A DNA stretch of 64,000 nt from Candidatus Bathyarchaeota archaeon (GTDB taxonomy: Archaea; Thermoproteota; Bathyarchaeia; 40CM-2-53-6): positions 32,001-96,000 of the forward strand of contig CAVTBR010000001.1 in assembly GCA_963733055.1 (NCBI GenBank), in the 5' to 3' direction. The stretch's first letter is position 1, and every line of letters begins with the position of its first letter. Below the pieces are notes generated by a model. That model was given only the letters and a program-made list of their open reading frames with translations, had not been told where the DNA came from and made no database searches. This document shows, piece by piece, positions 7,917 through 32,765 of the stretch. A program made the position numbers and the translations under genes.

Positions 7917-8957
7917 ATGAAAGCAACTCTCACACAACAGCAACTCTTCGCAACGCTATTCGTAACAATCGCAATCCTCGCCCTGACTCCCGCACTGGCG
8001 CATGCAGACCTACAATCGCAACCCCAAACTATCGCCCTCAATACTAGTGGTCAGGCCACGGCAATCGGTAACGGCCTCTCAGGGGCAAGCACCCTCAAGC
8101 TGACTGCTTACGCCAACACGACAGCTAATCACTGGCTCATGATACAAAACGTCACGGGATCCCTCCAAATTGGCTCCACGACCATCCCCATAACCGGCGG
8201 TCAGGGAAGCGTGAAGAACGCGGGAGCGACCGCGATATTCGCTGACACAAACTCCGGCAAAGGTCAACTAATCCTCATTGGGACAATGACCAACAGCACT
8301 GTTACCTTCAACTCACCAGAAAGCCAACTCGCCTCGATGTCATATCTCTCACTTTCCGGTACGGTCAATAAGACCACCGGCAACCTAGGCGCGAATCCTG
8401 GGAATACCAATACGAACTCCACATCGCTGACAACGGGTCTACTAAATAGTACTCTACAAACCAATTCATCAACAACATCATCAGCGGCCCAGCTTCAAAA
8501 CACCACAAGCATACAGCCTGCAAACATGACATCTACAACGAACGCCGCTGTAACTTCGTCCATGACGCTGACTACAATTCCGGTAAACGCGACTCAAACG
8601 GCTAATTCCACATCTGTGTCATCAATCGTTCGGCTTCAGAACACGACAAACGTACAAACTGGAAACATGACATTGACGTCAACGACTGTTGCTAATGTAA
8701 CTTTATCCAACACTCTCAACAATTCTACCAACTTTACTGCCACGGGTTCTACCAATATTCCGCCCAGTGCCGTACGAGCCCCTTCGAACGTCACCATAAC
8801 CGTGACGCAGTACGTTAGCCAGACAGTGTCTGTGACTCAAACGGTTGCTAATGTAACGGTCAGCTATACTGTAACCTCTACGGTAGCCAACATTACTATA
8901 ACCCAAGGGAATGTCACGACGACAACTGGAAACGTAACAACGACGGCCACAACTTAG
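7917..8957 (+). CDS. secreted Thr/Asn/Ser-rich surface (glyco)protein
   Basis: Signal peptide ending ALAHA; many N-x-S/T sequons; long Thr-rich region. Confidence 0.75.
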   Translation: MKATLTQQQLFATLFVTIAILALTPALAHADLQSQPQTIALNTSGQATAIGNGLSGASTLKLTAYANTTANHWLMIQNVTGSLQIGSTTIPITGGQGSVKNAGATAIFADTNSGKGQLILIGTMTNSTVTFNSPESQLASMSYLSLSGTVNKTTGNLGANPGNTNTNSTSLTTGLLNSTLQTNSSTTSSAAQLQNTTSIQPANMTSTTNAAVTSSMTLTTIPVNATQTANSTSVSSIVRLQNTTNVQTGNMTLTSTTVANVTLSNTLNNSTNFTATGSTNIPPSAVRAPSNVTITVTQYVSQTVSVTQTVANVTVSYTVTSTVANITITQGNVTTTTGNVTTTATT

Positions 8958-9052
8958 ACAGGGCCTTATGGCCCTTCCACATCTTTTTCGGCAACAACGG
9001 CCTTACTCTGTGAGCCTAGGGCTCTCTGAGCGACGCGTATTCCATACTTTGT

Positions 9053-9520
9053 ATGGACATCGCTCCGGAAATTTGTGGGGCTTTCCATACTCGTAACCAC
9101 CTTTGCGATGACTACAAAATCAATAAATGGTACGGACCCTTCAAGGGCCTCATGGAAGCTGCGTTTCTAGTTCAACCGTGGATTCATACTCGCACGACGA
9201 TGGACTGTTGCAGGCTTTGCTACCAAGCAAGGGAAGGCTCAGGTTTTCTGGAGTGCAAACGTGCTCATTTGGGCGGCTTCAACTCCCTCTTGGCCATGCT
9301 CAGGATGGAGCCTAGACCTGAGTTCGGTGCAGCGATGAAGCATCTGGAGGACGCGAAAGAGACCTGCCTCGCATCTGCGAACCCGGATATGCGTTGCCAT
9401 GAGAAAATGCAGAACGCTCTACAGAGTACTCAGCTTCTTTTCGATCAGATGATTGACGATTACAAGCTCAAGTATTCAATGATGATTACGAACAAACCGT
9501 CGAAAGCGCCCCCGATGTAG
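9053..9520 (+). CDS. Cys/His-rich hypothetical protein
   Basis: 155-aa ORF filling the gap between genes; no family recognised. Confidence 0.55.
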   Translation: MDIAPEICGAFHTRNHLCDDYKINKWYGPFKGLMEAAFLVQPWIHTRTTMDCCRLCYQAREGSGFLECKRAHLGGFNSLLAMLRMEPRPEFGAAMKHLEDAKETCLASANPDMRCHEKMQNALQSTQLLFDQMIDDYKLKYSMMITNKPSKAPPM

Positions 9521-9670
9521 GCCGAGACTTCGGATTTTGTTAAGTCGGTAAATTTCTCTACTCGAGGACTTGTTGCCGGTAGCATTGTAGGTAACAGCTT
9601 ATCGAGCAAATGCCTCGACAACGAGGTTATTGCGCAATGCGTCCATGAAAATTGGGATGGAAGATTGGGG

Positions 9671-9835
9671 TTACTTTGCTCCGAGTTCGCGTTTCTTCGC
9701 ACGCAAGTTGTGGCCGTGGCACTTTCTGCACCTGTTCGACGCTTCTGGGTTACGCGCGCCACAGTCTCTGCAAACCTTGTAGTGTAACCTGACTTTCTGT
9801 GCGAGTTGCTTCTTTACGACATCAGTGATGGGCAT
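9671..9835 (-). CDS. rpl40e: 50S ribosomal protein L40e
   Basis: Translated by hand: MPITDVVKKQLAQKVRLHYKVCRDCGARNPEASNRCRKCHGHNLRAKKRELGAK; below ORF-track cutoff. Confidence 0.93.
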   Translation of the reverse strand: MPITDVVKKQLAQKVRLHYKVCRDCGARNPEASNRCRKCHGHNLRAKKRELGAK

Positions 9836-9952
9836 TGGTGAACCACTTAGATTAATTCGTCCTCTGAGACGGAAAAGTGCAATATATACCGTGTGTTGCC
9901 AAGGTCACGAGACAATACTTCGATTCCAGTCAGTCGAGAAGAGTTGAGGTGT

Positions 9953-10516
9953 ATGGAATCCCGAGATTCGATTGCTGAAGTGTCAAGCGAGGTAGTCGGT
10001 TGTACCAAATGCCGACTGTGTGAGACTCGACGAAAAGCAGTTCCGGGCGAAGGTCTGGAAAGATCAAGGGTCATATTCATAGGAGAAGCGCCGGGCGAAC
10101 AAGAGGATGCTCAAGGGCGACCGTTTGTCGGGGCCGCCGGAAAACTGTTGACCGAACTCCTAGTATCAGTTGGTTTGAGGCGGGAGGATGTTTACATTAC
10201 GAACATTGTCAAATGTAGGCCTCCGAACAATCGGCCTCCAAGAAAAGATGAATCATCCGCGTGTAGGCCTTACCTAGACCGGCAGATCAGTTTGATTGCT
10301 CCACGGATTATCTGCCCGATGGGGAACTCCGCAATCCACGCGTTAATGGATTCAGATAAGGGCGTGACGGATCTGCATGGGATGCCGCTTGAGATCGGGC
10401 AAGTTACCTTCTTTCCCATGTATCATCCAGCCGCTGCCCTCTACACCTTCCAGTTGAGGAAGGTGATGGAGGAGGATTTCAAACAGTTAAAGAGGTTATT
10501 GAATACTTACGGCTAA
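9953..10516 (+). CDS. udg: uracil-DNA glycosylase family 4; 3' end supplied by integrated element
   Basis: CTKCRLC Fe-S ligands, GEAPG, GRPFVG, KCRPPNNR, YHPAA. Confidence 0.93.
   Translation: MESRDSIAEVSSEVVGCTKCRLCETRRKAVPGEGLERSRVIFIGEAPGEQEDAQGRPFVGAAGKLLTELLVSVGLRREDVYITNIVKCRPPNNRPPRKDESSACRPYLDRQISLIAPRIICPMGNSAIHALMDSDKGVTDLHGMPLEIGQVTFFPMYHPAAALYTFQLRKVMEEDFKQLKRLLNTYG
10472..10481 (+). repeat. attL core GAGGATTTCA
   Basis: Identical to 16825-16834; in frame in udg (E-D-F). Confidence 0.85.
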
Positions 10517-10568
10517 GGCCGCTTTAGCGGGTATTAGGGATTCGCTGAACTACATGGAAGATTAACCC

Positions 10569-10596
10569 AAAAAAAAGAGGGTGGGCCGTTAAGCCC
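10569..10596 (-). terminator. hairpin plus U-tract terminator
   Basis: GGGC-TTAACG-GCCC then T8 on the minus strand, just after the stop of ORF 10605-10931. Confidence 0.55.
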
Positions 10597-10604
10597 GAAA
10601 CTCA

Positions 10605-10931
10605 TTACTTCTTAACGTATTTGGATGGGAACACGTACACGTCCGCACCTGACTTCCTAACCGCTACTGGGGGCTGTTTACCTTTAGGCGTAGTCTTACT
10701 TACCCTGCCTTTAATCGCTAGATACACGTTCGTTGCCCTATCAGCAGAGTTAAGACTAAGCTTAACCGTCTTAGTTTTGCCGTCGTTAATTAACGGGTCG
10801 TAGTCGCTTGAACGGTGGGCTTCAAGCACATTATCGGGCGGCGCAGGTAGAGTTTCAGTGTTAACTAAACCTTTAATCTGATACATCTGCGGCTTACCTT
10901 TATCGGAACCCGTATTCGCTGCCATAGCCAT
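10605..10931 (-). CDS. element hypothetical protein (basic, possibly DNA-binding)
   Basis: GGGGTGA ribosome-binding site upstream, terminator downstream, Lys-rich. Confidence 0.7.
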   Translation of the reverse strand: MAMAANTGSDKGKPQMYQIKGLVNTETLPAPPDNVLEAHRSSDYDPLINDGKTKTVKLSLNSADRATNVYLAIKGRVSKTTPKGKQPPVAVRKSGADVYVFPSKYVKK

Positions 10932-11058
10932 AAATCCAATTCACCCCCCGCACACTAAACATACCACCTCTACCCACACTAACATAATAAGCGTATTGAC
11001 TAAAGTCACTTTAAGTGAACCTTAACCTTGCCTCCTTAAACGTCTAGGCTTGCAGGCA

Positions 11059-11160
11059 TGTTAACGTGCTTACCCGTAAAACCGTGTATTTACCTCGTTA
11101 AACTCTGTATTCGTGTTTCATGCACCTTTGTTAACGGTACCGGTAAAACCCGTGTTTACC
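11059..11160. repeat. two imperfect direct repeats TGTTAACG..TACC.GTAAAACC(C)GTGT(A)TTTACC
   Basis: Copies at about 11059-11094 and 11129-11160. Confidence 0.55.
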
Positions 11161-11420
11161 CGCTTATTTCAGCTAACGGAGGCCACTTTGACCCCCGATT
11201 ACCTTCAGCAGGCAAAGAGTTGGCTGCATACTTGCTTGTGTATGGTAATACTATAGGGTTACTGGTTGCTAAAGCAACTTGAGTTGCTATACGGCATAGT
11301 AGGCTGCTGTTAGGTTACCTGCATTTACGGTTACCCTCCCCCATTACTCTAATGTACTATAGTGTACGTGGGAGGTTTATTGTTGTGTTGCTGCTGTCTG
11401 CCCCGTGCTGCCGCCTCCAT

Positions 11421-11528
11421 GTGCCTCTTAGTGCCCTATCATAAGGTGCCTACGGGTGCCCTCATAGAGAAACAAGGTGCCTTACTGCTATCAGATCGTA
11501 ATAGTCAAGTAACGTATAGTATGGTGCC
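11421..11528. repeat. cluster of six GTGCC motifs (iteron-like)
   Basis: GTGCC at 11421, 11431, 11446, 11456, 11477, 11524. Confidence 0.5.
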
Positions 11529-12013
11529 TGCTGCTGGATGGTTTACGTTGGTGTGGCCTGCCCTCCACCCCACCTTAATCGTAGTCTTAGCCCGCCCACC
11601 AGCCCCCAGCGCCACCCGTAACGGATAACCACCCATACTATTTCACTTCACCCTAAACCCCTACTATTACACCTACTACAAATAAGGCTTGAGTAATAGC
11701 ATAGTTATATAATAAGAATAAGTTCTACTCCTTGCTATCCGTGCCTGTAACGTGATGTATGCTAACCTAAGGTTTCCTTACGGAATTTATGGGTTCCGAA
11801 CTGGGTTTAAGGGAAGATTAGGGTTTATTGGCCCAAAAAATTTTTTGGTTCTATAGGACCTTCCCCTTTTTAGGTGAATTATGGTTGATTATGGTTATTT
11901 ATGTCTGTTTTAGCTTAACATCATGTTTGTTTAATCATACGTGACGCCATGTAACGACAAAGGACGTGTATTGACGGGAAAAGGCTGTATGTGGGAGGTT
12001 CTTCCTCCCTAGT

Positions 12014-12481
12014 GTGGGGCGGACAAATATGCCTCGTCCAACTCCACGCCTCACTCACGGTCTAATTATTTTAGGAGAAAGATTTTGTTTGAACCGTAAA
12101 AATAGTAAGCCGAATTGCTTTAGTAGGATTCGACCTTCAATCGCTCAGCAGCTCCAAGCCGTCGATCTTCTCGTGCAATTGTTTGGTAGAGTCATCAGTT
12201 GTCCTAAGTGTGGTAAGGCCGGTCGAATCAGCGTTAACCGAACTAACCATTACGCTGTGTATCGTTGCCGTGTCGGGTTAACGCCCACCCATCCGAAGCT
12301 CTGTAGCCTCGGCGTTTTTGACGGACGATTTCTACTTAACGACCCTGAAGGGTCAGAAGCCGTTCAAAGGCTGTGGCAACTGTTCCGGAACGTTGTTAGG
12401 CCGCTGGCTTTGTCGGTTGCTGAACGATCGCTGCTTGTTAAGATAAGAACGTACTCGAATAAGAAAGAAGGTGATAATTAA
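12014..12481 (+). CDS. zinc-finger protein of element
   Basis: CPKCG...HYAVYRC...HPKLCSLG; start uncertain. Confidence 0.6.
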   Translation: MGRTNMPRPTPRLTHGLIILGERFCLNRKNSKPNCFSRIRPSIAQQLQAVDLLVQLFGRVISCPKCGKAGRISVNRTNHYAVYRCRVGLTPTHPKLCSLGVFDGRFLLNDPEGSEAVQRLWQLFRNVVRPLALSVAERSLLVKIRTYSNKKEGDN

Positions 12482-13012
12482 ATGACAAATGAAATTAAGA
12501 AAGATGATGGAGCCTCCGAGCACCCCCCAGCAGGGAGTTGGGCTGAAGCAGCATGGGCTTACCAAAGACACCAAGAGGCCACGCAGCCTAAACCAGCTAC
12601 TCCACCTTACGGTTTCACAACGGAACAAGCTTCAAGGTTCAACCTTTTGGAAAACCTGAAGACCGCCCGTGAGAACCTACAGCAGAAATTGGAGGCTGAA
12701 GCCCCAGACATCAGTCGATTAGATGATACTACGCCGCTTACAGGCACGCCTTACACCTTGCTAACCTTTCCGGATACCGACACGATGGATCACTGGGTTT
12801 CAAACGCCGCCCCTAATATTCGGGTTTGGAAGACAGGAAAAAGTTCCTACAACATCTCTGTCTGGTGCATCGTATCTTACAACAACACTTCGGCCGGTAA
12901 GTTGCCGAGCGTGCCCGACCCAGAGAAGGACTTACGTAATAGTGGCCGTGACCAACCAGAGAATCCTTCTAACAGCCAGTCCGGCGGAGCAACCGACAAC
13001 GACTTTCCTTAA
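12482..13012 (+). CDS. element hypothetical protein
   Basis: GGTGA RBS and ATG abutting previous stop; short coiled-coil-like segment. Confidence 0.75.
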   Translation: MTNEIKKDDGASEHPPAGSWAEAAWAYQRHQEATQPKPATPPYGFTTEQASRFNLLENLKTARENLQQKLEAEAPDISRLDDTTPLTGTPYTLLTFPDTDTMDHWVSNAAPNIRVWKTGKSSYNISVWCIVSYNNTSAGKLPSVPDPEKDLRNSGRDQPENPSNSQSGGATDNDFP

Positions 13013-13076
13013 CCTCCCCTAATTCCTCCGTTCTTTTTTGGAGGCATATTTCCGTTAAAATGAATGTGAGTATGAA

Positions 13077-13370
13077 ATGAGTATTCTTGATTTAATTCGA
13101 CGTGGCCTTCCTCATATCTCGATTACTTATGGTAACGCCCCTACAGCCACTGCGCCTACTACTCCGCCGACACCTATAGTAACTAAACCGCCATTGCCAG
13201 TTAAGCCCCCGAAAATCACACACTTCAAGGATGGAAGCTGTCGTTTTGATTTTCCGGATTCGGAAAGTCAGCAGGCTTGGTTATTGGCCCACAGTGGCCG
13301 TCCACTAATTTTCCAAATTGCACCTGAACGGACGACTACCGCTTTTGTCCTCAGCGGGGTAGACAGGTAG
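13077..13370 (+). CDS. element hypothetical protein, Pro/Thr-rich linker
   Basis: ATG-start ORF collinear with neighbours. Confidence 0.65.
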   Translation: MSILDLIRRGLPHISITYGNAPTATAPTTPPTPIVTKPPLPVKPPKITHFKDGSCRFDFPDSESQQAWLLAHSGRPLIFQIAPERTTTAFVLSGVDR

Positions 13371-13380
13371 GTAGTCTAGC

Positions 13381-13530
13381 ATGGAATCGAAAACGTATCG
13401 CTGTTCCCGCTGTGGCAGAACCGTAAGTGCCCCGAAGAACATTTACAGTTTCACGGACCAAGCCAACGTGAGGCGTAGGCTGCATAGAGCCGACTGTGGG
13501 TTGCTTAAAGCCGTAAAAAGGGGTGAGTGA
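13381..13530 (+). CDS. small zinc-finger protein (49 aa, CxxC...HxxxC)
   Basis: Translated by hand: MESKTYRCSRCGRTVSAPKNIYSFTDQANVRRRLHRADCGLLKAVKRGE. Confidence 0.6.
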   Translation: MESKTYRCSRCGRTVSAPKNIYSFTDQANVRRRLHRADCGLLKAVKRGE

Positions 13531-13686
13531 AACTTAACAAATCATCTAACCGTATTTACCGACCTTCCATCTGCTCAAGCTATGGCTGGCGTTACCGGAA
13601 CCGTCGTGTCCGTGTGGAGTAACGCAACTATGAGTCAAATCCTCATTCTCTGGCACGATTAAGGCTGATTTCCGGGGTTCTTAACC

Positions 13687-14556
13687 TTGAGTGAACAAAT
13701 AGAGGAATACACTAAAGATTACGGCTACAATAGTAGCTTCCGCTCTGCTGAACCACCGAACAGGCTACCTGAACCCGTTAGGCAACTGATTCTACAAGGA
13801 GCATACGGACCCACTCCACCGGAACCTAACAACCAGAATGAAATTATTGGCCGTGAAGGCGTTCTTAGAACCCTACACAGCTTGAAGCATCAAGGCTTCA
13901 CCCGCCGCCTAGTTAATCAGGACCGAAACAACGATGAGAAAGCTCACCCCGACATCTTAGCTTACCATCCAGCATTAGGCTGGGTTCAAGCTGAAACCCA
14001 CTTCTACATTAAAACCCGCTACGTAGACGACCAGTTAAGCATCCGGAAGAATATTCGAAAAGCATGGTTCCAAAACTTACCTAAATTCGTAGTCATGATA
14101 TGGCAAACCCCCTACGCTTACTCAGCCCAACATAACCTACTCCTACACGGAATAGGCTTATGGAACGGCCTAAACGAACTAACCGGCCTAACCGACGAGG
14201 GGGTGTGTGTTGTACAAGGACAGTGTGAAGGTGTCTGTATTGATAGTAAACGGGGTCAGAGAGAGGGTTTGAGTGAAGGTAAACGTGCTGTGGAAGGTTA
14301 CTTACAGGGGGAAGGTCAGTGTAATGGGTACTGTAATAGCGGTTATAGTACTGATGTAAGTAACGACGACGTTTATGGTGGGGTTGGTGCCCCTCGCCGG
14401 AGGCTCCCTATTGCTGGTTTAGAATCATCTCATAAGCACTTCAACGGGGTAGGCCGTAACCGGTCGTACTGTGATGGCCTGCAGGGTTATTGTGAGCATG
14501 GTTACTGTAAAGGGTACTGCATGTGGGGGGCTTGTAACGTTAGGTGGGTTAACTGA
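13687..14556 (+). CDS. putative PD-(D/E)xK-like nuclease with Gly/Cys-rich tail
   Basis: 'GREGVLRTLHSLKHQGF...HPDILAYH...VQAETH' resembles the restriction-endonuclease core; Lys position atypical. Confidence 0.5.
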   Translation: MSEQIEEYTKDYGYNSSFRSAEPPNRLPEPVRQLILQGAYGPTPPEPNNQNEIIGREGVLRTLHSLKHQGFTRRLVNQDRNNDEKAHPDILAYHPALGWVQAETHFYIKTRYVDDQLSIRKNIRKAWFQNLPKFVVMIWQTPYAYSAQHNLLLHGIGLWNGLNELTGLTDEGVCVVQGQCEGVCIDSKRGQREGLSEGKRAVEGYLQGEGQCNGYCNSGYSTDVSNDDVYGGVGAPRRRLPIAGLESSHKHFNGVGRNRSYCDGLQGYCEHGYCKGYCMWGACNVRWVN

Positions 14557-14605
14557 TGTTGATGTTGTTCATGATTGGTCTGAACCGTTTATTTATTTCA
14601 TCATG

Positions 14606-14867
14606 GTCACGGCTTAGTGGTTGTTTCCAGAAATGGTTTTTTCCTTAAGCCTGACATGCCGGGTCGGTTGCTTCATCTCCTCCGATTCGGCGGCGGGTTG
14701 AGTTTCACTTCAGGGGCAACCCGTTCCTAGTTTCTTCCTTCCTTCCCAGTCACGGCTTGAGTAGTTGCTTCTTAAGCCGGACAAGTGCTGAGCCGGTTGG
14801 CTTTATCTCCTTTCGGCTCTGGCCGGGTTGTTTGCTTCCGACGTGTTCGTTGGAGCAACTTAACCCG
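14606..14867 (+). ncRNA. candidate structured RNA: two ~118-nt units of three hairpins each
   Basis: Units 14606-14723 and 14749-14867 conserve stems while sequence and loops differ; G-T wobble pairs favour the + strand. Confidence 0.45.
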
Positions 14868-14871
14868 CCTA

Positions 14872-16245
14872 CTATTTTATTGGTTTTAAGTGTTTGAGCG
14901 GTAGCGCTGAAGCTGAAGGAAGAGGCTTACTACTCCTCCGTTTCTTCTTGAGTGGTTTCGGTTTAGGTTGTGCTGCTGACGATTCCACGACTTCAGCGGC
15001 TACTCCTAATCTACTCAGGCGATTAATGAGTTTCTGCTGCTCCCAGCGCATGCGTTCGTTGTTAGGGTCGTCTGGTGTGGGGTCCTCGGCTATGGCTATT
15101 TGCACCATGTCTAATTGCTCCTTCAAATTCACAATAACTTCGTCTTTGAGAAGTTTGTTTTCTTCTTGGAAGCTGGTTAACTGCTGGGTCATAGCTTTGA
15201 CTTCGCCCTGTAGTGTGGGGTTCTCTGCGTCCACGTAAGCCCGCCACTTCATCCATTCTGCCTTAACCTGTTCTGGCTTGTGTAGTAGCTGTAGGTACAT
15301 GTTCTTGTCTACTACGTGACCGGTCATGAACTGTAGGTACACTTGGTTAATCTTAGCGTCTGTTAGTCCGTCCGTGACCATCAGGTCCCTGAAGAAATGT
15401 GGCCTAGTCGTTTCCTTTATGCCCGCTCGCTTACGGGCCATATGCCAAGGCTTAAGGTAGTGCCATCCCCGTATAGCTTCTTTACGGCCTTGCCCGCCAT
15501 GTACTCTAACCATCCATGGGGCAGGCTCATTAACGAATGGTGTTAACACTTTGGCCGGTATGAATGTGAAGTAGCCTTGTTCCTGACTCTTACGGAAGTT
15601 ATAGCTTAACATGATAGCTTCGTTAGGTTCTCTTGCCGCCTTTACCTGTTCTACTAGCTGAGGCCACATTTTGTTGATGAGTAGGGCTTCACGTCTGCCT
15701 AATCCACCGTACATCATAGCCGAGAATAGTTCACGGTATGGCGTCTTACAGGCCGATATAGTGGCTTTGGCTTGAGCTAGTGGCATGTAGGTAACTTTAG
15801 GTTCTATTGCTTGTTCGTCTGTGTGGTTCTCTACTATGTGGAATGTTTCAGGCGGCAGAGCCGCCCTATTATGTTTATAGAACGCCTTAATGGCGGCATA
15901 TAATAGCTCCTTACGCTTACGGCTTAACTCCGCTATGAGTGTGGTTTTATCATGTCTTTTACCGCTGGGATATAGCCTTGAGGTCTTAACTATCCCTGAT
16001 AAGATGAACTGCTGGGCTTGGTCTAGTGCCTTGTAACCGTCTGGGTCTACTTCCCTGTTCTGTCTCTCTGTAAGTAGTAGGTCAGGTGATTTACCTATGC
16101 CTGTACAATATTGGTATATGGCGTAGCTGTAAGAGTCTCGGCTAGACTCGGCCCCTAGCCTACTAAGGAACCTCTGCATACTAGCGTTAGCTTCAATGAA
16201 CGGTTTACCTATCTCGCCTTCGTGGAATAACCCTGAACGGCTCAA
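14872..16245 (-). CDS. tyrosine recombinase/integrase
   Basis: GGLGRRE box I (atypical), RK..YFTFI, RPHFFRD (HxxR), MTGH, downstream Tyr (NMY); N-terminal core-binding-like domain. Confidence 0.88.
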   Translation of the reverse strand: MSRSGLFHEGEIGKPFIEANASMQRFLSRLGAESSRDSYSYAIYQYCTGIGKSPDLLLTERQNREVDPDGYKALDQAQQFILSGIVKTSRLYPSGKRHDKTTLIAELSRKRKELLYAAIKAFYKHNRAALPPETFHIVENHTDEQAIEPKVTYMPLAQAKATISACKTPYRELFSAMMYGGLGRREALLINKMWPQLVEQVKAAREPNEAIMLSYNFRKSQEQGYFTFIPAKVLTPFVNEPAPWMVRVHGGQGRKEAIRGWHYLKPWHMARKRAGIKETTRPHFFRDLMVTDGLTDAKINQVYLQFMTGHVVDKNMYLQLLHKPEQVKAEWMKWRAYVDAENPTLQGEVKAMTQQLTSFQEENKLLKDEVIVNLKEQLDMVQIAIAEDPTPDDPNNERMRWEQQKLINRLSRLGVAAEVVESSAAQPKPKPLKKKRRSSKPLPSASALPLKHLKPIK

Positions 16246-16769
16246 AGCCCTAACCTCATTAGTGGGATGGGGGTTGGCCCCTTGTCGGCTGAAGCCGCTT
16301 TAGCGGGGCCGTGTCTATCCTGTATATTTCTCCTAAGCTGAAATATGCAGGGTAGGCACAGCCATTCATCTGTCTCGCTGTTATGGTAGAGGGTTCTGAA
16401 GAGGCCGCACTTCTCACATGATGTCGGCTTATGGCCTGTGCTTATGCTAGTCAGGGCCATGGGCGGCGTACTCTGATATGTCGTGGTACTCTGCCAGCAT
16501 CTTAGACCGGTGGGCCTTGCCCTTACAATGGCATGTCTGCGGGTTGAAGCTAACCAAAGGTTAGCTTTAGCTAACCCTTTACAGCGGACATTATGGGCGT
16601 GCTGACAGGGGCCGCTCTTACACTCTCGGCGGTTCATGTAGTCGGCTAGTTCTTGAGGTAGCTCATCGGTACTAGGCTCCGGGGACACAACAACCGGAGC
16701 CAAGAATATCGGGCCGCTTTGAAACCGTAAGGTTCCATAGCGGTCTATCGTCGGTAGTTCTCGGTTCAA
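16242..16769 (-). CDS. Cys/His-rich zinc-finger protein coupled to integrase
   Basis: CEKC...CLPC; 4-bp overlap with integrase start; start uncertain. Confidence 0.55.
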   Translation of the reverse strand: MNRELPTIDRYGTLRFQSGPIFLAPVVVSPEPSTDELPQELADYMNRRECKSGPCQHAHNVRCKGLAKANLWLASTRRHAIVRARPTGLRCWQSTTTYQSTPPMALTSISTGHKPTSCEKCGLFRTLYHNSETDEWLCLPCIFQLRRNIQDRHGPAKAASADKGPTPIPLMRLGL

Positions 16770-16824
16770 GGTTTTTGCCTCAAACCTACCCTACTTCATT
16801 CAGGAATAAAAAAGTATGGATAAA

Positions 16825-16872
16825 GAGGATTTCAGGAAACTTCGCGGGCTTCTAGATTCCATATCCAGTTGA
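16825..16872 (+). pseudogene. attR plus displaced original 3' end of udg
   Basis: Reads EDFRKLRGLLDSISS*, similar to current udg tail EDFKQLKRLLNTYG*. Confidence 0.8.
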
Positions 16873-16874
16873 GA

Positions 16875-17852
16875 TCAGTCTTCTTCGAAGGTTGGTTTGT
16901 TCCCGAGAACGCCATCGATTCTTTCCATAACTTCTTTGCTGAGGTTCTCAATTATTGCCTCGGCCTTCATGTTCTCAGTTACCTGTTCTGAACGTGTTGC
17001 GCCGGTGATGACGGTGCTTACGTTCGGGTTCTTGAGGCACCACGCCAAAGCTAGCTGAGCCAACGTGCAATTCAGAGATTTCGCTATCGGTTCCAATTTC
17101 TTGACTCTTTCAAGGTTCTGTGGCGTGAGGATGTATTCTTTGAGCCATTCGTAGCCTTGGAGTGAAGCTCGTGTGCCGTGCGGTATCCCACTGTTGTATT
17201 TGCCGGTAAGAAGCCCCGATGCTAGGGGGCTCCAGATTGTTGTTCCCAACCCAATTTCCCGGTATAGGGGTAAGTATTCTTTCTCGACCCTGTCTCGGTG
17301 GAGCATGTTGTATTGTGGTTGTTCCATTTGTGGTGGCGTAAGGTGATATTCACGTGCAATTGCGTGGGCGCGCATTATGTCGGCGGCATTCCATTCCGAT
17401 GTCCCCCAGTACAATACCAAACCCTGGTGAATTAGATCGTCCATGGCGCGGACCGTTTCTTCAATAGGGGTCGTGGGGTCGGGGCGATGGCAGAAGAAGA
17501 GGTCAAGATAGTCAAGCTGTAACCGTTTCAGGGAGCGTCGGCATGCTTCGTAAATGTGTTTGCGCGATAAACCTCGGTCGTTGGGCCCTTCGCCGCCCCA
17601 GAAAACTTTGCTCGACACCACAAAGCTCTCTCGTGGCCATCCGGTTTTCTTCAAAACATTGCCCATGACCGTTTCTGCGTTCCCATTCGCGTATGCTTCG
17701 GCGTTATCAAAGAAGTTTACCCCCGCCTCATAGGCCGCGGACATACACTTCAAAGCCACCTCTTCACCAACCTGGCCTCCATACGTAACCCACGCGCCGA
17801 GGGATAATTCACTGAGTTTCAATCCCGAGCTGCCGAGACGACGATAGTTCAT
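16875..17852 (-). CDS. aldo/keto reductase (Kv-beta-like)
   Basis: [48 protein letters not shown]. Confidence 0.93.
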
Positions 17853-17965
17853 TCTCGATTCACAAGGCGATGAATAAGGAGGGAATATTAAAGCAATGAC
17901 GCTGCACGAAGGCGGGGTTCTTTGGGAAACATCTTATTTCCATACAGACTCACAAACTACTCGCT

Positions 17966-19156
17966 TTGGTGTTCCTTGTGAGTCGAGATGAGAAGAAACT
18001 TGAACGCATCCGCAAAGCCATGCAACATGAAGGGCTTAGCGGTCTCGTACTTCGTATACCCGAGAATGTTTCGTACATTTCAGACGCATGGCCTGGAAGA
18101 GGCCTAAGCTACTTAATCGTACCAGTTGACCGCGACCCCATTCTAATCCACCCCGCGGGGGAGACAGTGCCTCGAACTTGGGTGGAGAATGTGAGGTTGT
18201 ACAAGTGGGAGACCTACGAGCACCTAGGGGACTCACTCGCAGTAGGAGTTGACGAAGTACAGAGAGCCTTAACGGATCTGGGAATCGGGTCTGGCACGAT
18301 TGGAATAGAACAGGGGTGGGAACATTTCCTCGGGACACCACTTCGGTACGAAATGATGGTTGCCGGAGAAAAGACAGCCACCGCACTCAGGAATCGACTT
18401 GCCGAATATGATGTGAAAAACGCTTCTCCGCTCCTAGTCCAAGCTAGATCCGTGAAGACTGAAGGTGAAGTTGTTGCGATGAAGAAGGCAAACCGAATAG
18501 CGCGCGTCGGACTGGAAACTTTTGAGAGAAATCTCAAGCCAGGACTCACCGAAGTCCAACTTTCATCGAAGATAGAACACGAGATCGTCACTCAAGGCGT
18601 GATGAAGTTCCGTGCCAATCACGTTGTTGCATGCGCTTTCGTAGCATCTGGACCCTCCACGGCGGAGGCTTACAAGTACGTGGTCGGGAATACGAAACGA
18701 AAGATGAGGCGTGGAGATCTGGTAATGTTGGAGCTTGACGTGGTGGCGGACGGTTATAGTTCTGATACGACTCGGACCTTCGTAGTCGGAAAACCCAACA
18801 GGAAACAACATGCTCTTCTCGAAGCAGTTCTAGATTCGGAAAGCTCGGCGATCGCTGCCATAAAACCAGGAGTGAGCGCGGCCGAGATAGCACGTACGGC
18901 GAACAAGGTCATTGAGAAACATGGTCTATCGGAGTACTTGGTGCATAGACTTGGGCATGGGATCGGAGTTGCAGTTCATGAGCCGATACCTGCTTTACAT
19001 GTTGAGTCGAAAGATCAGCTGAAACCTGGAATGGTTCACAGCGTTGAGCCGGGTATCTATAGCAAAAAGTTCGGTGGCATACGGATAGAAGATGACATTC
19101 TCGATACCGACCGCGGAACCGAGTATCTTTCAAACTTTCCGAGAACTCAAGAATGA
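17966..19156 (+). CDS. Xaa-Pro peptidase, M24 family
   Basis: GYSSDTTRT, HRLGHGIG, HE, EPGIY, GIRIEDD. Confidence 0.9.
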   Translation: MVFLVSRDEKKLERIRKAMQHEGLSGLVLRIPENVSYISDAWPGRGLSYLIVPVDRDPILIHPAGETVPRTWVENVRLYKWETYEHLGDSLAVGVDEVQRALTDLGIGSGTIGIEQGWEHFLGTPLRYEMMVAGEKTATALRNRLAEYDVKNASPLLVQARSVKTEGEVVAMKKANRIARVGLETFERNLKPGLTEVQLSSKIEHEIVTQGVMKFRANHVVACAFVASGPSTAEAYKYVVGNTKRKMRRGDLVMLELDVVADGYSSDTTRTFVVGKPNRKQHALLEAVLDSESSAIAAIKPGVSAAEIARTANKVIEKHGLSEYLVHRLGHGIGVAVHEPIPALHVESKDQLKPGMVHSVEPGIYSKKFGGIRIEDDILDTDRGTEYLSNFPRTQE

Positions 19157-32672: not shown

Positions 32673-32765
32673 TGGTGGGCCCGCCCGGATTTGAACCGGG
32701 GATCTTCGCCGGTCTCACTCAGGAGATGTGAGGGCGACGTCTTGGCCAGGCTGGACCACGAGCCC
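32673..32765 (-). tRNA. tRNA-Val(CAC) with 15-nt intron at 37/38 (32712-32726), encoded CCA
   Basis: GGGCTCG/CGGGCCC acceptor stem, GGTTCAAATCC T-loop, TCGCC/GGCGA anticodon stem, bulge-helix-bulge. Confidence 0.95.

Follow-up and report, generated by a model that had tools for sequence, protein, structure and literature searches.

In a 64-kb stretch of the genome of a Candidatus Bathyarchaeota archaeon (contig CAVTBR010000001.1, positions 32,001 to 96,000; hereafter the window), the gene for a family-4 uracil-DNA glycosylase (udg, encoding UDG) is parted from its own last 12 codons by the 6,353 bp that lie between two copies of a short repeated core. We interpret this segment, at 10482-16834, as a mobile element that integrated site-specifically into the 3′ end of udg by means of its own tyrosine recombinase, and that brought with it a coding patch that preserves the glycosylase; we put the probability of this reading at about 0.88. 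Precedent exists for the mechanism. What is new here is the host class, the udg target, an integrase family that had gone unrecognised, and a conserved patch that travels with the integrase while the cargo is exchanged.

The insertion at the 3′ end of udg

The ends of the element are marked by the 10-mer GAGGATTTCA, which occurs exactly twice in the window, both times on the + strand, as the core of the left attachment site (attL, 10472-10481) and as the core of the right one (attR, 16825-16834). The copies are identical at 10/10 positions and both spell E-D-F in the udg frame; two copies compare with a chance expectation of 0.23, and none of 100 shuffles of the window contained at least two. 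Past the left core, the udg open reading frame (ORF) ends in the element-encoded tail KQLKRLLNTYG and a stop (10481-10516, + strand), a segment that would also form the P′ arm of the attachment site (attP) of the excised element. Past the right core, the udg frame gives RKLRGLLDSISS*, which is the displaced native tail (R)KLRGLLDSISS with its stop (16835-16872, + strand); the stop codon itself, at 16870-16872, lies 2 bp from that of a convergent aldo-keto reductase (AKR) gene, a host flank outside the element (16875-17852, − strand; PF00248, E 1.1e-75). The element-borne and displaced tails share 3/11 residues, with five further pairs conservative by eye, and as DNA they match at 10/33 positions, which is near random. 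A first-pass annotation of this DNA had noticed the repeat in the E-D-F frame and had called the two tails similar as protein and not as DNA; both observations hold.

Empty sites in relatives establish which part of this arrangement is the insertion. We searched for the udg protein in 40 related genomes and the window's own, and 22 of the others belong to the same genus. An orthologue is present in 20 of these 22 congeneric genomes, and the locus was examined in 19. The genomes that yielded no locus are G007, where the match has in-frame stops, and G004 and G017 (75% and 73% complete), which gave only a weak match to a distant paralogue. At 18/19 congeneric loci, the genes for ribosomal protein L40e, UDG and AKR are contiguous, AKR being the conserved neighbour of udg at empty sites, and the udg tails follow the pattern ...EEDF[RK]KLR[GAV][LV]LDS.... 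Native ends of this kind, which the displaced tail in the window matches, include ...EEDFKKLRGLLDSISGSN in L003 and ...EDDFRKLRGLLDSLFG in L002, where the gap between udg and AKR is also 2 bp. Because udg meets a native-type tail and AKR at 18/19 loci, we conclude that the segment of 6,353 bp between the cores was inserted. The first-pass annotation had proposed in advance that relatives lacking the element should join udg to such a tail, and they do. Its broader claims, of an integrative element in the udg 3′ end with a short attachment core, and of an element-encoded substitute C-terminus with the host tail left orphaned, are borne out by these empty sites, by the reading frames at both cores and the native-type tails of congeners, and by the recombinase fold and the two further elements described below.

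The resulting hybrid gene (9893-10516, + strand) has a host body up to 10481 and takes its last 11 codons and stop from the element. Its product belongs to the family-4 UDGs with the C-terminal segment included, matching PF03167 (E 1.8e-36) and scoring 204.1 bits against TIGR00758 (cutoff 125.3) over residues 37-204 of 207; the archaeal equivalog NF040953 gives 224 bits, under its cutoff of 250. By inspection, the junction falls downstream of the Cys residues (CTKCRLC, VKCRPP, ACRPYL) and of the GEAPG and HPAAAL motifs. The best solved relative, S. tokodaii UDG (4zbx), is aligned through residue 203, and this alignment takes in the patch (...EEDFKKIRELA, residue 189 of 194). Because the patch is covered both by the family-4 profile and by the S. 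tokodaii alignment, the replaced segment belongs to the conserved UDG domain.

The same kind of insertion recurs at udg. At the nineteenth congeneric locus, in genome G011, udg ends in the tail KQLKRLLNTLP and a 13.5-kb insert lies between udg and AKR. The G011 integrase is 51% identical to that of the window over 389 aa and is encoded 26 bp from an orphan tail, RKLRALLDS..., which is followed by AKR. No other gene is common to the two elements (tblastn, E ≤ 1e-3), the G011 cargo comprising a winged helix-turn-helix (wHTH) regulator, several zinc-ribbon and membrane proteins, and unassigned proteins. Counting the window's own, 2/20 udg loci in the genus are occupied, with different cargo. A third element was found on a 4.4-kb metagenome contig (L027), which holds AKR, an orphan tail ending in ...KEDFRKLRGILDSLVE* and an integrase 49% identical to that of the window. 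Integrase homologues at the udg site, which the first-pass annotation had suggested looking for, are present in both G011 and L027.

These junctions suggest how the element could move. A circular form would carry an attP in which a 17-nt block and a 12-nt spacer precede the core GAGGATTTCA, and in which the core is followed by eleven codons imitating the C-terminal helix of family-4 UDGs. The attP core would pair with the host udg codons E-D-F, 12 codons before the stop. Strand exchange would then cause the udg body to read into the element-borne KQLKRLLNTYG*, leaving the native tail orphaned at the far junction beside the reductase gene, and excision would restore native udg. The patch most likely keeps UDG folded and active, and for that reason carrying the element would cost the host little.

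The 17-nt block TCATTCAGGAATAAAAA (16796-16812, + strand), which would be the P arm of attP, stands at the same place in all three udg-site elements, whose right junctions align as a 17-nt block, TCATTCAG[G/T]AATA[A/T]AAA, followed by 12 variable bases, the core and host sequence. Read on the opposite strand, the block is T/A-rich and TATA-like and lies ~35-45 nt upstream of the start of a leftward operon formed by a 175-aa ORF and the integrase gene; it may be the promoter of this operon, an arm site for the integrase, or both. The two left junctions, in the window's genome (G000) and in G011, are alike from udg through the ninth patch codon and are unrelated past there. The exact repeat in G011 is AAGAAGA (7 bp) and, because it overlaps the G000 core by ~5 bases, the strand-exchange region should centre on GA[G/A]GA.

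Two other candidates were discarded. A 22-nt direct repeat, matching at 20/22 positions, has one copy just after the hybrid udg stop (10510-10531, + strand) and another inside the 175-aa ORF (16286-16307), and holds a small hairpin-forming core. We rejected it as a conserved arm site because its 14-nt core occurs only in loci of the window's genome and was not found in the G011 or L027 elements. Insertion targeted to a tRNA gene was rejected on the basis of a tRNA scan, which places the sole tRNA gene of the window at 32673.

The integrase and its relatives

The integrase gene (14872-16245, − strand) is intact and full length, lies 580 bp inside the element from attR, and encodes 457 aa with a basic, coiled-coil C-terminal extension. 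Sequence models do not place the protein in PF00589 (Phage_integrase) or PF16795, and it has no NCBIfam, PHROG or PADLOC match. The closest approaches to these models come from relatives: the G011 integrase matches PF00589 at E 8.5e-4 (19.6 bits, under the 27.1 cutoff) and P0012 matches PF16795 at E 0.041. Only 13 relatives turned up in a collection of 5.8 billion proteins, and no precomputed Pfam domain is recorded for any of them.

An AlphaFold2 model built on an alignment of 15 integrase sequences (A1) has a mean predicted local distance difference test (pLDDT) value of 78 and, when it was compared with the PDB by Foldseek, all five rows at E ≤ 0.001 were tyrosine recombinases (XerA, 5hxy; IntI4, 2a3v). 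Lower rows included XerH, lambda Int, Tn1549 Int, SSV1 Int and HP1 Int, the catalytic domain of SSV1 integrase (3vcf/3uxu) matching with target-normalised TM scores of 0.64-0.68. The model has the fold common to lambda Int, Xer, Cre and SSV1 Int. Candidates for the ordered catalytic residues R-K-H-R-H/W-Y are present as R184, K219, H283, R286, H310 and Y317, roles that were assigned by motif inspection and not by structural superposition. In A1, K219 is invariant and H283, R286, H310 and Y317 are each at least 90% conserved. R184, within GLGRRE (residues 181-186), occurs in the 12 closest sequences; the three most distant members, P0012-P0014, lack this putative first catalytic Arg, because GMGQGE replaces GLGRRE. 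From the modelled fold and the motifs, we conclude that the 457-aa ORF is a divergent tyrosine recombinase missed by sequence models.

Scanning metagenomes with the integrase alignment gave 18 loci. Two of them (L025 and L026) have match figures equal to those of the G011 locus, and L027 is the third udg-site element described above. L028 and L029 represent one element, which has an integrase 50% identical to that of the window and adjoins not udg but an Lhr-like helicase gene, at the 5′ end of the latter; the other 13 loci (L030-L042) have integrases 35-39% identical, in other contexts. In a maximum-likelihood tree of 14 integrases, from which P0011 was left out as truncated, the integrases found at udg are split between two subclades of a clade with 11 members, and the L029 integrase forms a long branch inside one of these subclades. 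This topology offers a hint, and only a hint, that udg was the older target with a later switch to another.

The L029 locus has features of its own. At L029:9590-10001, a 980-aa Lhr-like helicase ORF adjoins the integrase gene (9992-11356) back to back by its 5′ end, and directly upstream of the likely helicase start (MLTNAF...) there is, by our count, a 19/25 match to the P-arm block and surroundings of the udg elements. The L029 element may replace the promoter and first codons of this second DNA-repair gene.

In twelve contigs (L031-L042), integrase genes whose products are ~36% identical to that of the window start ~6-530 nt from the contig end, and several of these contigs stop at the same bases. 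In one of them (L034:1-540), the sequence continues through roughly the final dozen codons of an unassigned ORF (...LEELYPHER*) before it reaches a GAPDH gene. The contig ends look like assembly breaks at another attachment site near the 3′ end of a gene. Further members of the integrase family, each in another context, are L066 (G011:C1:94861-96126; profile E 6.5e-68), L045 (G308:C188; 6e-90), where the integrase gene is back to back with a nucleotidyltransferase gene, and L046 (G016:C25; 4e-34), where it lies 160 bp downstream of a C1-peptidase-like gene.

The coding patch and competing explanations

The patch has diverged between elements in a restricted way. Across its first nine codons (KQLKRLLNT), the G000 and G011 copies differ at four positions, all of them synonymous, and four random single changes were all synonymous with P = 0.0008 in a simulation. 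By contrast, the last two patch codons differ at 6/6 bases, with the stop at the same position. The patch also retains the L-x-x-L-L spacing of native tails. Because the divergence of the first nine codons is synonymous only, it suggests that the replacement peptide is under selection. We favour the view that the patch is kept for the sake of a working UDG and, judging from the same synonymous-only divergence, the hybrid enzyme is probably active.

The pattern E-D-F-x-x-L-K-x-L-L-N, searched as DNA, occurs in 2/105 genomes of the order, which are exactly the element carriers, and in 2/59 genomes of the family. When the 120 closest UDG proteins of the protein collection were sorted by the fourth and eighth residues of their tails, 85 had R and D, respectively (78 by script and 7 by eye), and 12 had K and N, as in both element tails. 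These 12 K...N tails are far more varied than native ones (for example, KTLKGLLNALK, EKLKILLNGLK and KRLKQLLNDLK). Our prediction from these sequences is that K...N tails flag further elements; at least one of them (KKLKALLNSLPA) could be a native variant.

A bolder proposal would be that a clade of Bathyarchaeia recombinases has specialised in the ends of DNA-repair genes, namely the udg 3′ end in three elements and possibly the Lhr-like helicase 5′ end in L029, and that its patches, perhaps together with the promoter, retune the C-terminal helix of UDG and alter uracil repair to the advantage of the element. We consider this a long shot. If it were true, the K...N signature, as opposed to the native R...D, would change a property such as the partner binding or the level of UDG, and the diverse K...N tails in 12/120 UDGs would mark a large unseen population of elements. 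As to partners, the UDG tail may be a PCNA-binding motif, a possibility that enters only into this proposal. Sso-UDG1 is described as binding PCNA3 (PMC1636371).

Several results weigh against a mobile element that carries its own recombinase and a selected patch. Even at E ≤ 10, the 457-aa ORF matches no Pfam recombinase family, coiled-coil noise being the only return, and a profile search of PDB sequences with the integrase was not significant (IntI4, E 0.36). The segment around the proposed catalytic Tyr (residues 313-320) is modelled at pLDDT <50. The crossover region that the two elements have in common does not exceed ~5 bp, which is short for the overlap region of a tyrosine recombinase. 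The selection argument uses two elements and nine codons, and constraint at the DNA level, such as binding sites for the integrase core in the P′ arm, could add to the conservation of the patch. No replication, capsid or transfer function was recognised that would let the element persist or spread once excised. Finally, the only public run in which the stretch occurs (a quarter of sampled words) yields 11 contigs, all short and at depth 2-4, that bridge neither junction, a cover too thin to count either way.

Some of these points would also fit an element that integrated site-specifically but has since lost the ability to excise or spread, the hybrid udg now being the host's own gene. The lack of a recognised replication or transfer gene is compatible with such a fossil, as is the presence of a single copy in its genome, the other genomes and the phage records searched having none; attP and attB junction reads are likewise missing, subject to the same thin cover. 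Against fixation, the integrase ORF has its full length and retains the conserved residues, the core copies are identical, all ORFs of the element are open, and the udg site is occupied in only 2/20 loci with different cargo, a patchiness that points to recent, repeated gain or loss. Fixation is a serious possibility that we nonetheless regard as unlikely, and the element may still be mobile today. A separate doubt concerns the tail, which might not be selected for UDG function at all if any short ending serves or if UDG is dispensable; its likeness to native tails would then stem from DNA needs of the attachment site or from an old copy of a udg tail. Just 3/11 residues are identical to those of the displaced tail, the last two patch codons vary freely between elements, and the genome has a second, distant gene of the UDG superfamily (G000:C1:1097319-1097525, E 1.5e-5). 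Such freedom is hard to reconcile with the four differences in nine codons, every one of them synonymous (P about 0.0008) in the manner that marks coding constraint, or with the conserved stop position, the L-x-x-L-L spacing, and the alignment of the patch with the C-terminal segment of the S. tokodaii enzyme, and we judge an unselected tail to be improbable.

The identity of the element as something other than a plain integrated element must also be considered. A small provirus or a virus satellite, with capsid and packaging functions that are too divergent to recognise or are supplied by a helper, would account for eight ORFs without a family, for the small size of 6.35 kb, and for a weak, sub-threshold match of one ORF to a protein domain of Pyrobaculum spherical virus (PSV; E 0.0053). 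However, there is no PHROG match for nine ORFs (E ≤ 0.01), no integrase relative that the patterns used could bring up from 2.9 million IMG/VR contigs, and no DNA match to the element in 50,697 phage records, and the G011 element combines the same integration module with entirely different cargo. A viral identity is accordingly a distinctly poor prospect in our view. At the far extreme, the repeat could be a coincidence and the segment a lineage-specific gene island of other origin. A 10-bp repeat alone is indeed weak evidence, but the break falls exactly at the repeat relative to 18 empty sites, a tyrosine-recombinase gene lies at one end, and the same integrase family stands at the same udg codon position in two other lineages; we give such a coincidence almost no credence. 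We thus retain the interpretation of 10482-16834 as a site-specifically integrated mobile element with a patch that preserves UDG.

Known systems, cargo and neighbouring genes

The best parallels for this integrated element come from thaumarchaea, in which 14/68 integrated elements lie in the 3′ ends of protein genes, attachment sites are as short as 8 bp, and the majority are classed as cryptic integrated elements, 2.6-98 kb in size, whose sole signature gene is that of the integrase, as reported in one survey (Krupovic et al. 2019, PMC6563490). The 6.35-kb element of the window lies within this size range and has the defining features of the class, namely an integrase and flanking direct repeats verified against empty sites, without hallmark genes of viruses, casposons, conjugative elements or insertion sequences. 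One thaumarchaeal element, NitEve-E2, replaces the stop region of its target (8 nt, stop included) with its own sequence and so reconstitutes the ORF (PMC6563490). On the basis of that account, NitEve-E2 and our element share an archaeal, mesophilic setting, a tyrosine-recombinase integrase, an insertion into the 3′ end of a protein gene verified against an empty site, a short attachment site (as short as 8 bp in that survey, 10 bp here), an element-supplied ending and stop, and the lack of hallmark genes. They differ in that our host class is Bathyarchaeia and our integrase belongs to a small family without a Pfam match; moreover, 8 nt are replaced in NitEve-E2, whereas in our element a mimic, itself conserved between elements, takes the place of 11-12 codons of a conserved helix.

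The novelty of the target should be stated with care. The first-pass annotation had noted that most characterised archaeal integrases target tRNA genes, and had implied that the insertion is unusual. Integration into protein-gene 3′ ends is already documented for archaeal elements, however, which makes the case less unusual than the annotation implied, and udg is not among the targets listed in the same survey ('glycosylase' occurs 0 times in its main text; PMC6563490). A survey of Bathyarchaeia reports 56 viral genomes, and the passages considered do not mention a small integrase-only element (PMC10848311). Our literature search for UDG as a prophage or integrase attachment target surfaced none among the papers listed, but it was a weak search and we make no claim of an unreported target.

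In E. coli, phage 21 and e14 both integrate in icd. The second of these brings a substitute 3′ end comprising 163 bp of icd (Hill et al. 1989, via PMC6379469). As described there, e14 resembles our element in lying inside the 3′ part of a housekeeping gene, in supplying a substitute 3′ end, by which icd stays open and functional, in leaving the original fragment as a pseudo-copy at the other junction, and, as excision of our element would, in restoring the gene when it leaves; the attachment core in the coding region, the in-frame substitute end and the orphan end that typify this 3′-end-replacing arrangement are all found in the window. The e14 host is bacterial, though, and its duplicated 163 bp are clearly homologous as DNA, in contrast to our 33-nt patch with its 10/33 match. 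The self-splitting, SSV-type systems of fuselloviruses and related elements have attP inside the int gene, integration splits this gene, and tRNA genes are the usual targets. Our element resembles them in having an archaeal tyrosine recombinase to which the SSV1 catalytic domain is a structural match, but its integrase gene is intact inside the element and its attP would lie outside int, the attachment core being in udg-like codons. NitEve-E3, by comparison, is described as having a split SSV1-like integrase (PMC6563490).

More broadly, few mobile elements of Bathyarchaeia have been described, and this locus gives a clean set of attL, attR and empty sites. It adds a small integrase family missed by family models, together with a recurrent protein-gene target and an apparently selected patch. 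Annotators of udg in this genus should expect two types of tail, of which the K...N type can serve as a cheap marker of insertion. For an uncultivated class of archaea, the integrase and its 10-bp core make a candidate site-specific tool. As a concept, the locus is one more case, and the picture drawn from Thaumarchaeota and e14/icd is unchanged.

Besides the integrase gene, the element has seven or eight ORFs. In keeping with the first-pass annotation, which had recognised no Rep, capsid or conjugation gene, searches with Pfam, PHROGs, NCBIfam and PADLOC revealed no capsid, terminase, Rep/primase, Cas1, VirB4/VirD4 or transposase among the element ORFs, although distant homologues could escape these searches. 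At the left end, a 108-aa ORF without a family match (10605-10931, − strand) is followed by an ORF-poor stretch (10932-12013) of lower GC content (0.43-0.47) with short tandem repeats, which may be a regulatory or origin region. Next come a 155-aa ORF (12014-12481, + strand) with a zinc-ribbon-like CxxC...C motif, which gave the sub-threshold match noted above to PF22415 (PSV ORF131-like domain) and nothing above 0.82 in an Atlas search; a 176-aa orphan ORF (12482-13012, + strand) that found only itself among 5.8 billion proteins in a near-length search; a 97-aa ORF without a family match (13077-13370, + strand); and a 49-aa ORF (13381-13530, + strand) encoding a small zinc ribbon, with weak NCBIfam matches well under cutoff.

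The largest cargo ORF (289 aa; 13687-14556, + strand) encodes a putative nuclease. Its N-terminal domain (~residues 25-165) resembles PD-(D/E)xK nucleases and has 12 homologues; P88-D89 and E103 do not vary in this set, and positions 103-105 read E-x-K or E-x-H. The model has pLDDT >85 for ~residues 30-160, its best Foldseek rows are AF1548 (1y88), NucS/EndoMS, MspJI, Can2 and Hjc, with a modest best E of 1.3e-3, and the Atlas lead for this ORF is also nuclease-like. The C-terminal half (14290-14556) is repetitive and rich in Cys, Gly and Tyr, with pLDDT near 35; this segment matches 55 stretches of a repetitive 5,048-aa protein, P0136 (E 9.8e-73). The 175-aa ORF at the right end (16242-16769, − strand), which overlaps the start of the integrase gene by 4 bp, contains a zinc-finger motif (weak zf-piccolo match, E 2.5e-4, under cutoff). 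The G011 element has no equivalent of this ORF, whose product may act as an accessory recombination factor. We did not adopt the idea that the cargo forms a defence island because PADLOC, run on 19 element proteins from G000 and G011, gave only one weak Csa3-like match, to the G011 wHTH regulator. An Rfam search over 9000-18000 gave no match at E ≤ 1.

Other observations concern genes outside the element of the window. In the G011 element (L022, 9000-9935, − strand), a 311-aa membrane protein has a segment that is GIY-YIG-like by eye, followed by a C-terminal zinc ribbon; Pfam gave the zinc ribbon only. The AKR gene beside udg in L003 (G013:C16, 521-1473) aligns as three pieces in differing frames, which suggests frameshifts or assembly errors. 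Upstream of udg in the window, a 346-aa ORF (7917-8957, + strand) without a Pfam match has a signal-peptide-like start and a long body rich in Thr, Ser and Asn with many N-x-S/T sequons, and may encode a secreted or surface glycoprotein.

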